64,000 bases of DNA, taken from Chitinophagales bacterium. GTDB taxonomy: Bacteria; Bacteroidota; Bacteroidia; Chitinophagales; LD1. The translations under genes were made by a program, and so were the position numbers. The stretch spans positions 43,291-107,290 of the forward strand of contig JAXLUJ010000009.1 of the NCBI GenBank assembly GCA_046329575.1. Reading direction: 5' to 3'. The notes under the pieces are model-generated. The model had not been told where the DNA came from, made no database searches, and was given only the letters and a program-made list of their open reading frames with translations. Of this stretch, positions 56,806 to 60,454 are shown piece by piece (the stretch's first letter is position 1; each line of letters opens with the position of its first letter).

Positions 56806-58851
56806 CTACTTTTTGGGATCTACCGTAATGTTCTCCGGCTCAACCGATTCAATTTTTTGCTTCGAACCTGTAATGCGGAAGGTAGTTCGGCGATTCTTCT
56901 GGAATTCTTCTTCGGTACAATTGGCTCCATTCGTACAATTATTCACCGGTTTGGTTTCTCCATAGCCTACAGCTACCAAACGTTCTTTCGCCACGCCTTT
57001 ACCAATTAAATAATCTACAACCGACTGCGCACGGGCCTGCGATAATTTTTGGTTGTAAGCATCGCTGCCGCGCGAATCGGTGTGCGATCCAATCTCAATG
57101 CTCAAATCCTTGTTTTCATTGAAGAAAACAAGAATGGAATCCAATACATTTTTGGATTCAGGGCGCAAAGCAGCTTTGTCGTAATCATAATAAATGTTCG
57201 GAATTACGATTTCCTTTTGAGTAAATATCTTTTCCAGTTCCAGATCTTTGTAAATGGTGATGACAGTTGAATCTTGATTTCGTTTTCCTTTTGACGAAAC
57301 AACATCACTTTTCGAAAAGAATCCATAGGCATTTGCCGTAAGTTTGTAATCCGTTTCTTTTTGAAGCGGAAAAGTAAAATTGCCGCCACCATCGGTCAAC
57401 ACACTGGCCAGTACAGCGTCCGATTCGGGATTTTTCAGATCTACCCGCGCCGCTTTTACAGGCTGCATGCCCAATATCTTGCTATCGGGATTTTCCGGAT
57501 TTTCGAATTGTTTGGTTAAAATTTTTCCTTTCAAAACGAAAGTATTGCGCCATTTTTCTTCAAAGTGATAAATATCGTCGCCGCCCCGGCCGCCTTGACG
57601 TGATGACGAAAAATACCCGCTCATAAGTATGGAATCCTCCTCATTAGAAGGCTTATACTTTTCAATGATAAATGCAAAATCATCAGCCCCCGAATTGATT
57701 GGATAACGCAAATTCTGCGGGTCTTTCCATAGCGTTTTACTTCTTGTTGCCTTGAAAATATCCAAACCACCCATTCCCGGTAATCCGTTCGAAGCAAAGT
57801 ATAAGTTGCCTCTATCATCGAGCCACGGAAAATATTCGTCGCCGCTGGTGTTTACATACTGTCCGGCATTGGCGGGTGCCGACCATCCACTGTCGGTTTT
57901 TGAGAAATAATACAAATCGTGCCCTCCGAATCCGGCTTTCATATCTGATGAAACAAAAAGTGTTTTCCCGTCGCGCGATAGCGCCGGTTGCCCAACATTT
58001 ACCGTGTCAGGGAAAAGATTTAACGGTTCAGCTTCGGCCCAACTGCCATTAGCATAACGGCTGAAATAAATTTTGCAGAATTCGTTTTTCTTGTCTTTTA
58101 TTTTTTTGTTCGATTCATCTACGCCCTTACAACGGGTGAAGTAAATTTCGTTGCCATCTTTGCTAAACGTACAGGAGCCCTCGTATTCGGCCGTGTTTAA
58201 CACCGGTGAGAAGTTCTGTGGGGTGCTCCACTTTCCGTTTTTCTTTTCAGAGGAATATAAGTCAGCCTGTTTTTCTCCGGTCCATTCATTGATGAAATTG
58301 CCGGTAGCATTATCATTGGAAGAAGTGAAAATGAGATTACCTTTCAAAAGTACAGGGGCATAATCGCTTTTGGGAGTATTGATTTCTGCCACGCCATGCA
58401 CTTCTGTTTTGGTGAATGCCTGCTTCCATTCAATAGCGTTTTGTGCATTCTTGATTTCCCGCTGTGCTACATTTTTACTGGCAGCATCAATAGCGCCAAA
58501 TTTAGTAAAGGTCTTAATGGCTTCTTCCGGCTGATCGAGCATCAACTGCATTTTTCCCAGGTTGAAATACGACTGCTCATCGCCTTCCTGAACTGCCTTA
58601 GCATACCACTCGGCTGCATTTTTAATGTTATTGAAACGGCGGTATGAATCAGCTATTTTGTTTGCCAGTTCCCGCTTTTTGGTCGGATCTTTTTCCGCAT
58701 TAAATTCTTTCTGGAGAGTCTCGGCTGCTATGGCGTACTCTTTCAGATCAAAAGAGGTAGATCCGGATCTTGTTTTTTGTGTAGTGGCACACCCTTGAAT
58801 CAGAATCAACAGCAGCAAGGCAAATGAAATATGGCGATTCAACATTACCAT
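56806..58851 (-). CDS. OmpA-family protein with N-terminal TPR and TolB-like (PD40) beta-propeller repeats
   Basis: 681-aa ORF with the lipobox-like LIQGC. PD40-like repeats are present (DYAPVLL, EGSCTFSKDGNEIYF, GQPALSRDGKTLFV, DEYFPWLDDRGNLYF). The C-terminal OmpA domain has IGSHTDSRGSDAYNQKLSQARAQSV. Confidence 0.85.
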   Translation of the reverse strand: MVMLNRHISFALLLLILIQGCATTQKTRSGSTSFDLKEYAIAAETLQKEFNAEKDPTKKRELANKIADSYRRFNNIKNAAEWYAKAVQEGDEQSYFNLGKMQLMLDQPEEAIKTFTKFGAIDAASKNVAQREIKNAQNAIEWKQAFTKTEVHGVAEINTPKSDYAPVLLKGNLIFTSSNDNATGNFINEWTGEKQADLYSSEKKNGKWSTPQNFSPVLNTAEYEGSCTFSKDGNEIYFTRCKGVDESNKKIKDKKNEFCKIYFSRYANGSWAEAEPLNLFPDTVNVGQPALSRDGKTLFVSSDMKAGFGGHDLYYFSKTDSGWSAPANAGQYVNTSGDEYFPWLDDRGNLYFASNGLPGMGGLDIFKATRSKTLWKDPQNLRYPINSGADDFAFIIEKYKPSNEEDSILMSGYFSSSRQGGRGGDDIYHFEEKWRNTFVLKGKILTKQFENPENPDSKILGMQPVKAARVDLKNPESDAVLASVLTDGGGNFTFPLQKETDYKLTANAYGFFSKSDVVSSKGKRNQDSTVITIYKDLELEKIFTQKEIVIPNIYYDYDKAALRPESKNVLDSILVFFNENKDLSIEIGSHTDSRGSDAYNQKLSQARAQSVVDYLIGKGVAKERLVAVGYGETKPVNNCTNGANCTEEEFQKNRRTTFRITGSKQKIESVEPENITVDPKK

Positions 58852-59189
58852 CCGAATTTTTTAATGAGCAGGTAAGTGGCAGTTACCAGCAATATTGAAG
58901 TTAAGTTTCCTACCAGAAAGTAATCATTGGATACCCGGCTTTTTTTGTCGTCGTCCAATCGGGTTCCTAATTTCACCGCACCAAAAAAGGTAACCACGCC
59001 GGGCAATTCATTAATGAATCCGATATATAGTACAAAGCGTTCCAATACACCCTTTAACACCGAATACAACCATTTGTTCTGTGTTACTTCCGATTGAGCG
59101 GAATAGTATTTCCTGATGCCGTAGAACAATGGCAAGGCGATCAGTTCCTGAGCAGCAAACAAAGCTGCGTATGTAGCAATCGAACTCAT
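58845..59189 (-). CDS. Small 3-TM membrane protein coupled to the SatD-like gene
   Basis: 114-aa ORF with three hydrophobic segments (about residues 3-24, 50-72 and 90-110). Its start overlaps the upstream stop by 4 nt, and its stop overlaps the next gene's start by 7 nt. Confidence 0.6.
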   Translation of the reverse strand: MSSIATYAALFAAQELIALPLFYGIRKYYSAQSEVTQNKWLYSVLKGVLERFVLYIGFINELPGVVTFFGAVKLGTRLDDDKKSRVSNDYFLVGNLTSILLVTATYLLIKKFGW

Positions 59190-59815
59190 TTTAATTGATT
59201 CAGGTTGGTGATGATGTTTTTGATGGCCTTGAATTCGCGGATGTGAAGCGTTTGCTCACGCCGCCACATCAGTGAACTGTCGCGCCCGCATTTTGCTGCC
59301 GCTTCACGATAGTTGGAAGTGCTCAGAAATGCAGCGATCACTTCGCGGTCTTTGGTTTTCCATTCATCAATCACCGATTGAAAAATAAGAAAACTATTCG
59401 CAAGGAGTTCTTCCAATTTCCTATCAGGAAGGTGGAAGTAAAACCGGGTCCGTTTTTCTTTTTTCAAAAGCTGCAATTGCTCCCGAGCCTTGGCCAGCCC
59501 GTCGCCCAGCATTCCATAAGCAATCTGATGATTAATGGCGGTATCAATCTTTCCGTAATACAACACATACCGCAGTTGGAATGGGAATTTACTGAGCGCT
59601 ACGCTTTGCTCCAGCGTAGTGATCACCTGCAGGGCCTCGTTCAACCCATTTAACACGCCCTGAAATTCATCGCCTAGCGTAATGGTAAGGGGCGATGCCA
59701 ACTCTTTTCGGAATTGAAGGTTAATTTGTTCTACCTGAAATCGAAATTCTTTCTGCAATTTCATTCCAGACAGCGCTCTGCTCTTCACAATATCGGCCAT
59801 CAGGATATAATTCAT
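59186..59815 (-). CDS. SatD-like protein: class III nucleotidyl-cyclase-like core plus C-terminal HTH-like tail
   Basis: I chose the ATG at 59815 (MNYILMADIVKSRAL...). ILMADIVKSRAL, ITLGDEFQGVL and QLRYVLYYGKIDT...GMLGDGLAKAREQL follow the order and spacing of cyclase-homology-domain motifs (FADIVGFT, IGDAxMA, RIGIHTG...GDxVNxAAR). The tail has NYREAAAKCGRDSSLMWRRE. Confidence 0.55.
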   Translation of the reverse strand: MNYILMADIVKSRALSGMKLQKEFRFQVEQINLQFRKELASPLTITLGDEFQGVLNGLNEALQVITTLEQSVALSKFPFQLRYVLYYGKIDTAINHQIAYGMLGDGLAKAREQLQLLKKEKRTRFYFHLPDRKLEELLANSFLIFQSVIDEWKTKDREVIAAFLSTSNYREAAAKCGRDSSLMWRREQTLHIREFKAIKNIITNLNQLK

Positions 59816-59869
59816 ATTGCATGTTTTATGCAATAATAAAAAATATTGCACGAAAATTGCAATTATTGG

Positions 59870-60454
59870 TTAATTCGTCCGGCGCATATAAACGGTAGCT
59901 ATAGAAACATGGAACTCCATATCATGGATGTGCCCGTTTTCATAATGATATACATTGCGGTTGCCATCAGAGCTTTTAAATTCCATGGTGTTGGCATCAG
60001 GATATTTCAATTCGTTGAAATCGGCTTCGGCTTCGTAAAAAATTTTTCGGTGTAATTTTCTGGGCTCGAAATAGAGCGTTACAATAGAAAAGTCGGGCGC
60101 TTCCGTAAAACTCCTTTTTCCTTTGTACGAATCTACCTGATATTGTTGCCCGTCGAAATGCACTTTAGTCCATCGTTCCAGCCTGCCATTCTGTTTTTCG
60201 ATATGAGAAGATGAAATCAGTTTGCCGTTCTGATACTTCACATCATAGCGGCTTTCATTTTCCCGGTTAATCCACAAAATTTTTGCCGCCGAATGGGTTT
60301 CTAAAGTGTAATGTTCCACATTTTCCGGCTCCAGGGTTTTTGTTACGGTTAGGTCGCCAACTTTATCACCAAAAAGGATGACATCAAAATGAATTCGCTG
60401 AGCACTTAAACCCAGGGTGAGCGCAAAACACAATACCAAACAGAAATACTTCAC
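59870..60454 (-). CDS. Secreted hypothetical protein
   Basis: 194-aa ORF with signal peptide MKYFCLVLCFALTLGLSAQ. It lies immediately downstream of thrS, with the stop and start adjacent. Confidence 0.6.
   Translation of the reverse strand: MKYFCLVLCFALTLGLSAQRIHFDVILFGDKVGDLTVTKTLEPENVEHYTLETHSAAKILWINRENESRYDVKYQNGKLISSSHIEKQNGRLERWTKVHFDGQQYQVDSYKGKRSFTEAPDFSIVTLYFEPRKLHRKIFYEAEADFNELKYPDANTMEFKSSDGNRNVYHYENGHIHDMEFHVSIATVYMRRTN

Follow-up and report, generated by a model that had tools for sequence, protein, structure and literature searches.

We analyzed a 64-kb window of contig JAXLUJ010000009.1 from a Chitinophagales bacterium (by window, we mean the whole stretch of DNA studied, 64,000 nucleotides), in which two minus-strand genes encode a protein of the SatD family and, directly downstream, a small membrane protein, hereafter called the partner. 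The features of this locus are listed in Table 1. Briefly, the two genes overlap, and two perfect palindromes, which we regard as predicted operators, lie just ahead of satD. Arrays of such sites upstream of satD are the main new result of the analysis.

Table 1. Features of the satD locus (positions are those of the window)
Feature	Positions	Strand	Remarks
Predicted operator site 1, perfect palindrome TTGCA-attttcg-TGCAA (minus-strand reading)	59846-59862		Sequence
Predicted operator site 2, perfect palindrome TTGCA-taaaaca-TGCAA	59817-59833		Ends 1 nt before the satD ATG
satD coding sequence	59186-59815	-	ATG at 59815, TGA at 59188-59186; 209 aa plus stop
Partner coding sequence	58845-59189	-	ATG at 59189-59187, TAA at 58847-58845; 114 aa
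ATGA overlap of satD stop and partner start	59186-59189	-	4 nt; translational coupling, read from sequence
Minimal palm (class III cyclase-like) domain, residues 1-128 of SatD	59432-59815	-	AlphaFold2 model, Foldseek
Asp8 codon	59792-59794	-	C-terminal end of beta1 (strand residues 2-9 in the model)
beta2-beta3 hairpin S41-PLTITLGDEF-Q52 with Asp49 and Glu50	59660-59695	-	Invariant in homologues
Five-helix domain, residues 129-209, predicted helix-turn-helix	59189-59431	-	Model, weak helix-turn-helix matches
Predicted recognition helix, residues 180-189 (SSLMWRREQT) with Arg185; Asp179 just before it	59249-59278	-	Model helix and operator association
DUF6134 gene	59870-60454	-	194 aa
Predicted lipoprotein gene	56806-58851	-	681 aa; ATG at 58851

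An initial annotation, made from the sequence, had described the locus as a cyclase-fold, SatD-like protein of 210 residues coupled to a membrane protein of 114. Both genes are real, although SatD has 209 residues and not 210. All the SatD motifs that had been quoted were found again, namely ILMADIVKSRAL with Asp8, ITLGDEFQGVL with Asp49, 41 residues further on, and QLRYVLYYGKIDT and GMLGDGLAKAREQL. The 4-nt overlap was borne out as ATGA, and the partner belongs to a family with three hydrophobic segments of about 21 residues. The impression that the pair does not differ in composition from its surroundings holds now that it has been counted, with a GC content of 0.42-0.47 in the satD pair versus 0.39-0.47 around it.

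SatD matches the Pfam family PF16264 with an E-value of 1.6e-20 and 74.1 bits (cut-off 29), residues 5-172 aligning with positions 4-171 of the 211-position profile, and the same family is matched by all 45 aligned SatD homologues. The protein is 100% identical to an NCBI entry, "SatD family protein [Chitinophagales bacterium]", from a Chitinophagales metagenome-assembled genome. The name SatD reportedly comes from the sat operon of Streptococcus mutans, ylxM-ffh-satC-satD-satE, which is said to have been described by Kremer and colleagues in 2001. The window protein is a clear member of this family (74 bits) and has a membrane protein beside it, just as SatC-type (DUF3307) proteins accompany SatD; here, however, the partner corresponds to the C-terminal module only, without DUF3307, and lies downstream of satD. 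A literature search found no description of a SatD fold, ligand, target, DNA binding or partner, and the family has no assigned function. The pair is thus an ordinary member of a catalogued family whose function is undescribed.

Homologues of SatD number 891 at an E-value of at most 0.001, occur in Bacteria and Archaea, and are carried by at least 577 species genomes according to a genome scan. For comparison of the surroundings, 80 loci were retrieved via the peptide TITLGDEF, and the operator counts given below use 79 related loci. The initial annotation had tied its reading to the two genes staying neighbors, and so they do: the partner gene lies directly downstream of satD in 77 of the 80 species genomes, usually with an overlap or a gap of a few nucleotides, and the same overlap or short gap is seen in Verrucomicrobiota, Betaproteobacteria, Alphaproteobacteria and haloarchaea. 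When all open reading frames of the 80 loci were clustered, SatD and its partner were the sole universal proteins. No conserved third gene was found in the 80 loci, and synteny of thrS and the DUF6134 gene with satD was seen in none of them.

Two further observations concern the limits of the family. Weak matches to DUF4940, an uncharacterized Pfam family, occur in nine of the 45 SatD homologues (best E-value 0.0016), and DUF4940 may be a distant relative of SatD. A metagenomic protein of 376 residues that joins SatD to the partner (P0244) was set aside as a probable artifact of a wrong genetic code, since its junction, MMRW-SFET-M, suggests that the gene caller read TGA as tryptophan; it also carries a long junk tail.

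Palindrome arrays and the C-terminal domain of SatD

Both palindromes lie inside the 54 bp between the stop codon of the DUF6134 gene and the satD ATG, with their centers 29 bp apart. The left arm of site 2 overlaps a near-consensus -7 box, TATTATTG; in Bacteroidota, the consensus of this element is TAnnTTTG. Within the 64-kb window, the two sites are the only perfect matches to TTGCA-N7-TGCAA, with 0.39 expected, and matches with one mismatch occur elsewhere in the window at chance level. One more step of 29 bp upstream falls inside the DUF6134 gene, and no third site was found there; a sigma-70 promoter scan of the locus gave hits at chance level only.

The same arrangement recurs in the related loci. 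At least one perfect 5-N7-5 palindrome beginning with TT is found within 160 nt upstream of satD in 64 of the 79 loci, and at least two in 42, with successive sites 28-29 bp apart in 56 of 69 pairs. As for the density of the sites, 120 perfect TTGCA, TTTCA or TTGTA palindromes fall within 170 nt upstream of satD versus 10 in the other 602 kb of the 79 loci, a 538-fold enrichment. Arrays of two to four sites stand ahead of satD across Bacteroidota, Proteobacteria, Verrucomicrobiota and haloarchaea, and the architecture is also built with other half-sites: TTTCA in Herminiimonas, GTGCA/TTGCA in a verrucomicrobium, and TAACC...GGTTA in Sphingomonas, Agrobacterium and Sulfitobacter. Three haloarchaea have GTTCGCC-N6-GGCGAAC and TACAACC-N6-GGTTGTA, with centers at -117/-88 and -41/-12, or at -56/-27.

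A perfect -7 box is present upstream of satD in 44 of the 79 loci, and the boxes are biased toward the sense strand (48 versus 14 on the antisense strand). They overlap a palindrome in a fixed register in 36 of these 44 loci, at an offset of +6 in 27 and of -5 in eight. Given this fixed overlap, a protein bound at the palindromes would occlude the promoter. Two additional observations can be made on the placement of the sites. The 28-29 bp spacing found from Bacteroidota to haloarchaea corresponds to about 2.76 helical turns, so that neighboring dimers would not share one face of the DNA. Moreover, three Flavobacterium loci (L058, L067 and L077) have an extra perfect TTTCA-N7-TGAAA inside the satD coding region, at +422 from the ATG.

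The genes around the pair vary between genomes, which leaves SatD and its partner as the sole constant companions of the sites. The C-terminal domain of SatD, a bundle of five helices, was modeled on its own with a predicted local distance difference test (pLDDT) score of 92.3. Its top Foldseek matches, none of them significant, are mostly helix-turn-helix (HTH) DNA-binding domains, which fill the first nine ranks and are mainly of the LuxR/FixJ/NarL type and sigma-70 region 4. Scattered weak matches to Pfam HTH families occur in the homologues, among them Sigma70_r4_2 at an E-value of 0.075 in one member. The stretch DYKxVAxxLxKxxSxxWRR looks like a positioning helix (169-176) that is followed by a turn and a recognition helix (180-189).

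To relate the protein to the sites, the loci were classed by half-site, with 27 carrying TTGCA and 31 carrying TTTCA. The three alignment columns of SatD most associated with this class, out of 209, are 185, 179 and 180, and these fall in the predicted turn and recognition helix. At position 185, arginine goes with G as the third base of the half-site in 30 cases and lysine with T in 31, with three cases of lysine with G and none of arginine with T (Fisher p=3e-15, uncorrected for phylogeny). Reading of G by arginine is classical in protein-DNA recognition, and the pairing of arginine with G and lysine with T fits known recognition. The operator class has shifted repeatedly among otherwise similar SatD proteins, and in nine of 11 nearest-neighbor pairs that differ in operator class, the expected change between arginine and lysine at 185 is seen. 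Residues 185, 179 and 180 also follow the operator more closely than the subtype of the partner. Taken as sequence comparison, this amounts to comparative evidence that a palindromic operator at the gene's own promoter covaries with residues of the predicted recognition helix. The remark in the initial annotation that the C-terminal part looks HTH-like and hints at a regulator is therefore supported by the HTH-type matches, the upstream palindromes and the covariation between residues and operator, and it has become the central point of the analysis.

A proposed autoregulatory circuit

The palindromes fill the 54-bp gap, stand 29 bp apart and overlap the promoter, so that the most likely role of SatD is to repress its own operon. 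We consider it reasonably probable that the pair forms an autoregulated operon in which SatD acts as a one-component autorepressor with a cyclase-like input domain. The computations show the gene pair and its conservation, the fold, the invariant residues, the operator arrays with their covariation with the recognition helix, and the non-defence context; that SatD itself binds the DNA, represses, binds a nucleotide and touches the partner are the steps that we infer. SatD dimers would occupy the two 17-bp palindromes TTGCA-N7-TGCAA over their own promoter, with Arg185 of the recognition helix reading the G of the half-site, and bound SatD would repress the satD-partner operon. The palm domain would serve as the signal input and would most likely bind a Mg-nucleotide, probably at a dimer interface, which may be head-to-tail like that of class III cyclases. 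Binding or turnover of the nucleotide would then set the DNA affinity of the HTH pair and the cooperation between dimers 29 bp apart. The ATGA overlap would keep synthesis of the partner in a fixed ratio to that of SatD, and the partner could be either a membrane-side input that reports the state of the membrane or of ions to SatD, or an output under SatD control.

Such a circuit recalls NrdR, the ATP-cone repressor of ribonucleotide reductase genes, which consists of a zinc ribbon and an ATP-cone and whose nucleotide domain controls oligomerization on tandem palindromic boxes, about three helical turns apart, that overlap promoters. The proposed SatD would likewise be a small repressor with a nucleotide domain, acting on tandem palindromes of fixed spacing over a promoter. 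The two differ in that their folds are unrelated, the SatD sites are 28-29 bp apart, and NrdR acts on nrd genes, whereas SatD would act on its own operon with a membrane protein. If the proposal is right, a functionally blank family becomes a concrete system, made of a cyclase-palm transcription factor, a predicted operator, a specificity residue at 185 and an obligatory membrane partner.

Several observations weigh against this proposal; those on the DNA side are given here, and those on the palm domain and the partner are given with these below. The best Foldseek match of the C-terminal domain has an E-value of 0.74, which is not significant, and the search of the PDB with the family profile gave an NtrC-family Fis-type HTH over residues 154-194 at an E-value of 0.12, also weak. 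The association between residues and operator is confounded by shared ancestry, with operator class and partner subtype largely splitting together. The sample of 80 loci is itself biased and, as its loci were retrieved via TITLGDEF, the invariance of residues 44-51 inside it is circular. Finally, the repeated palindromes also fold as RNA, at -15.4 kcal/mol (z=-3.35 versus shuffled sequences).

It could be argued from these points that the palindromes are read by another regulator or act as hairpins in the leader RNA, with the C-terminal helices of SatD serving protein-protein contacts, for example with the partner. The statistically weak HTH assignment, the better-than-shuffled RNA folding and the lack of a phylogenetic correction in the covariation would all be compatible with this. 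Nevertheless, we hold it to be very improbable. No other gene is conserved beside the sites, and the half-sites are drawn from a few words that are common to all copies in a locus and change with residues 179, 180 and 185, in pairings of arginine with G and lysine with T that suit protein-DNA recognition. Since the -7 box sits inside the last palindrome, the copies upstream of it would not be transcribed from that promoter. The fold of the leader RNA is a trivial consequence of the repeated palindromes, and the satD leader has no match in Rfam.

The palm domain and the membrane partner

The autorepressor proposal assigns the input to the N-terminal domain of SatD. The AlphaFold2 model of the protein, built on 45 homologues, has a pLDDT of 95.2 and a predicted template modeling score of 0.91. 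In residues 1-128, the elements follow one another as beta1, alpha, alpha, beta2, beta3, alpha, beta4, a long ordered loop, alpha and beta. Run against the PDB with Foldseek, the model has class III cyclases as essentially all of its top matches, and lower down among the first 50 come Cas10, GTP cyclohydrolase III and a Pycsar cyclic UMP (cUMP) synthase. The best match is Ma1120 (4wpa_B), with an E-value of 7.1e-4, a probability of 1.00 and a root mean square deviation of 2.7 A over 118 columns; across the class III cyclases, E-values range from 7e-4 to 1e-2 and the template modeling score reaches 0.57 on the target. In the viral structure library BFVD, the best fold matches are guanylate and diguanylate cyclase domains, and they are weak. 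The cyclase-like fold given in the initial annotation is thereby upheld, as all top PDB matches are class III cyclases or related palm enzymes.

The two aspartates that had been singled out, Asp8 and Asp49, proved invariant, also in the proteobacterial and archaeal homologues. In the 45 Bacteroidota-type homologues, the invariant positions are D8, S12, the S41-Q52 hairpin (SPLTITLGDEFQ), R82, G88, T92, N95, M102, G104, G106, L107 and R111. When Verrucomicrobiota, beta- and alpha-Proteobacteria and Haloplanus are added, D8, S12, N32, S41, T44, T46, G48, D49, E50, F51 and Q52 remain invariant, and so do R82, N95, A99, M102, G104, A110 and R111. Judged by topology in the model, D8 at the end of beta1 and D49 in the beta2-beta3 hairpin would occupy the metal positions of palm enzymes, and R82 at the start of beta4 and R111 in the next helix the phosphate positions of class III cyclases. 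The hairpin reads L-G-D-E-F, with G48, D49, E50 and F51 invariant, and recalls the GGDEF signature; among the top 50 PDB fold matches of SatD, however, no GGDEF protein was found.

Class III cyclases such as Ma1120 of Mycobacterium avium (4wp8/4wp9/4wpa), Rv1900c, CyaB and soluble guanylyl cyclase are thus the best structural likeness to SatD, and appear to share with it, judged by topology, acidic residues at the end of beta1 and in the beta2-beta3 hairpin and arginines at the start of beta4 and in the following helix. They differ from the SatD domain in that the latter spans just about 128 residues, has the LGDEF hairpin, is fused to a predicted HTH and shows no profile relation to them. A cyclase-type domain and a LuxR/sigma4-like HTH in one polypeptide, as predicted for SatD, are found in mycobacterial proteins of the Rv0386 type, which combine a bona fide Pfam class III cyclase domain with a STAND ATPase, TPR and a LuxR HTH (cyclase - ATPase - LuxR HTH) in more than 1,000 residues. 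In contrast, SatD is a direct fusion of 209 residues with a dedicated membrane partner and an operator array of its own.

The points on the palm domain announced above concern its relation to cyclases, which is visible at the level of the fold only and has no link at the level of sequence. The initial annotation had gone further and matched the SatD motifs one by one with those of class III cyclases. Such an equivalence could not be detected: none of the 45 SatD members matches the Pfam families Guanylate_cyc (PF00211) or GGDEF (PF00990) at an E-value of at most 10, a comparison by hhalign with an alignment of three solved class III cyclases and a consensus gave a probability of 0.24%, and searches of the PDB with phmmer and with a profile found no sequence link between SatD and cyclases. 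In a topology-based reading, the position of the base-specifying Lys/Glu, four residues before Asp49, is an invariant Ile45, and that of the asparagine of Asn-x3-Arg, four residues before Arg111, is an invariant Leu107 with Thr or Ala108 as its neighbor. In addition, the beta4-beta5 dimerization arm is replaced in the model by an ordered loop. With no sequence link, neither the asparagine nor the base-specifying positions (Lys/Glu and Asp/Cys/Thr) conserved and the arm replaced, a classical cyclase reaction by SatD seems doubtful. As modeled, the N-terminal domain appears to be a minimal and divergent palm whose metal/phosphate site seems intact, recognizably in neither the cyclase nor the GGDEF family.

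These data also bear on the possibility that the pair is a second-messenger module, in which SatD would be an active cyclase or nucleotidyltransferase whose product, or the loss of whose substrate, acts on the partner, which would be a receptor, channel or gate. The HTH would then contribute autoregulation as a further layer, and the function would be a housekeeping one (membrane, ion or energy state) and not defence. The palm fold and the invariance of D8, D49, E50, R82 and R111 in two domains of life speak for a real active site and not a scaffold, the two genes stay strictly together and translationally coupled, and in the partner the charged motifs at the edges of the membrane are invariant and a glutamate lies inside the first transmembrane segment. 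On the other side, no nucleotide-binding domain is recognizable in the partner, whose loops have just ~18-26 residues, the class III asparagine, base-specifying residues and dimerization arm are missing, and no relation of SatD to a cyclase or GGDEF family is detectable from sequence. On balance, we regard this module as rather unlikely. A related form, in which SatD is a DNA-tethered palm cyclase or nucleotidyltransferase that couples its activity with its DNA binding on the periodic (29-bp) operator array, and in which its nucleotide product, or its substrate, signals to or from the partner, we consider unlikely. If it were true, it would reveal an undescribed pathway of the second-messenger type, conserved as a cassette of two genes in Bacteroidota, in Proteobacteria and as far as the haloarchaea. 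More generally, if the palm domain binds or converts a nucleotide, the pair would represent a new wiring of nucleotide chemistry to DNA binding and to the membrane.

As for the partner, members of its family have ~110-130 residues and the motifs KGvLER, FGAvKlGTR and SNDYFLVGN, with a conserved Glu15 in the middle of the first hydrophobic segment. No match was found for the partner in Pfam, NCBIfam, PADLOC or the PDB. The family comprises 338 representatives at 50% identity and 703 clusters in a profile search; the 120 of these clusters that were listed have no Pfam domain and are named only "hypothetical" or "uncharacterised", with one exception among the 120 that bears the source label NADH:ubiquinone oxidoreductase subunit 6.

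In the haloarchaea Haloplanus and Halorientalis, satD is followed by a gene for a DUF3307 protein of 252 residues, and the C-terminal 70 residues of these proteins share the partner motifs (GSLERW..., AAKSIARF and AEYFLVGTL). The Haloplanus neighbor matches DUF3307 (PF11750) over residues 15-115 with an E-value of 2.3e-16, and the partner aligns with it only at its C-terminal residues 180-244 (hhalign E=1e-5); the partner also aligns with the 138-residue partner of Sphingomonas (hhalign E=2.5e-8). Given this homology to the Haloplanus C terminus and to the Sphingomonas protein, the partner appears, from these alignments, to be the SatD-specific C-terminal module of SatC-type proteins, without the DUF3307 domain. 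An assignment of the partner to DUF3307 itself, a membrane domain with an N-terminal H-x3-D-F-x2-Q motif, was rejected, as neither the partner nor 10 close homologues gave a match at an E-value of at most 10.

Two subtypes of the partner can be told apart, one with "GTR...SNDYF" and a short loop and the other with "ATRLKH...FNDYY" and a long loop. The SatD columns that track the subtype better than the operator are best represented by 140 and 137, in the first helix of the C-terminal domain, and by 17, with 194 and 204 also flagged. Residues 140, 137 and 17 may mark a contact surface for the partner, in a comparison that is phylogenetically confounded. In addition, the middle hydrophobic segment of the partner has an N-x-x-P break and could be re-entrant.

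The remaining point against the autorepressor proposal lies in the partner, whose topology is ambiguous, as its two loops, which average ~26 and ~18 residues, are both rich in lysine and arginine (5.8 and 4.5 K+R). It was also observed that Glu15 and the nearly equal K+R of both loops recall small dual-topology, ion-coupled membrane proteins.

The same features could fit a sensor-repressor whose partner is a small transporter or channel, an arrangement known from ArsR-ArsB and from small exporters under riboswitch control. SatD would then have a non-catalytic pocket for a metal or metabolite and would leave the operators when loaded, and the 114-residue partner would act as the effector by transporting an ion or small solute. 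An autoregulated operon that is headed by the repressor gene and also encodes a membrane protein would suit this arrangement, as would the membrane-embedded Glu15, the length of ~110-130 residues and the nearly balanced K+R, as in small dual-topology transporters, and the acidic triad D8, D49 and E50 could be a metal site. Yet the partner is unlike any known transporter family, the fusion of the haloarchaeal module to a DUF3307 membrane domain is a poor fit for a minimal exporter, and R82, R111 and K118 suit a phosphate ligand better than a bare metal. We therefore attach a distinctly low probability to it.

Genomic context and neighboring genes

The genes that flank the pair are housekeeping genes, stable within lineages and differing between them. 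One such context is of the Cyclobacteriaceae type, with the pair between parE- and parC-like genes in ~12-14 loci (e.g., L004, L005, L013, L029-L031, L037, L044, L053 and L062). There, the flanks are of the topoisomerase IV/gyrase B type (~624 aa) and A type (~914 aa), as identified from sequence alone, and a membrane protein of 150 residues is encoded further upstream.

The succession of a cyclase-like gene and one for a small membrane protein had led the initial annotation to compare the pair with Pycsar, the pyrimidine cyclase anti-phage systems reportedly described by Tal and colleagues in 2021. In an abortive infection of the Pycsar or CBASS type, the minimal cyclase would make a cyclic nucleotide on infection and thereby activate a membrane-disrupting effector. 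The likeness is real to the extent that a palm-fold, cyclase-like protein precedes a small membrane protein and that the Pycsar cUMP synthase 7r65 is among the fold matches of SatD (rank 45, E=0.012). However, searches of the defence models of PADLOC found no family for SatD at an E-value of at most 1 and none for the partner, and no domain binding cyclic nucleoside monophosphates, as in Pycsar effectors, nor any other sensor domain was found in the partner. No homologues were found in 50,697 phage records, in 2.9 million IMG/VR contigs or in BFVD, and homologues occur in eight of 72,556 plasmid records, all of them replicons of 200-816 kb. The pair also differs from Pycsar in that SatD has a predicted HTH and predicted autoregulatory operators of its own, and in the lack of a mobile or defence-island context: it is spread over the species genomes counted above in lineage-stable housekeeping settings (parE/parC, thrS) and has the native composition. 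Such a defence role is thus exceedingly improbable, and the signal/effector reading in its Pycsar-like form is not supported; the satD pair is very probably not a phage-defence system. This cautions that pairs of a minimal cyclase and a small transmembrane protein are not automatically Pycsar-like defence.

A single context of a defence-like or mobile appearance was seen for satD. On the pAt megaplasmid of Agrobacterium (L081), satD lies among toxin-antitoxin-like genes (HEPN/nucleotidyltransferase, HipA and antitoxin), and the partner annotated there has 90 residues and is truncated at its N terminus.

In the window, the genes near the satD pair are thrS, the DUF6134 gene, a gene for a TPR/PD40/OmpA lipoprotein, cinA and infC. 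The core-gene surroundings pointed out by the initial annotation are therefore confirmed, with thrS as a neighbor, infC and cinA in addition, and the OmpA-family gene as well. A terminator scan found no terminator-like site on the minus strand along thrS, the DUF6134 gene, satD, the partner gene and the OmpA gene. The DUF6134 protein, encoded between thrS and satD, has a signal-peptide-like N terminus.

The predicted lipoprotein combines TPR, PD40/WD40-like, CarboxypepD_reg and OmpA domains, and the start of its gene shares 7 nt with the end of the partner gene; with the alternative ATG at 58845, the overlap shrinks to 1 nt (TAATG). The gene is probably co-transcribed with the satD pair in the window. 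It lies outside the conserved module, since among the 80 loci an OmpA-family gene directly follows the pair only in the two closest relatives (L001 and L003). In PADLOC, the OmpA domain of this lipoprotein gave generic matches to ZorB/MotB.

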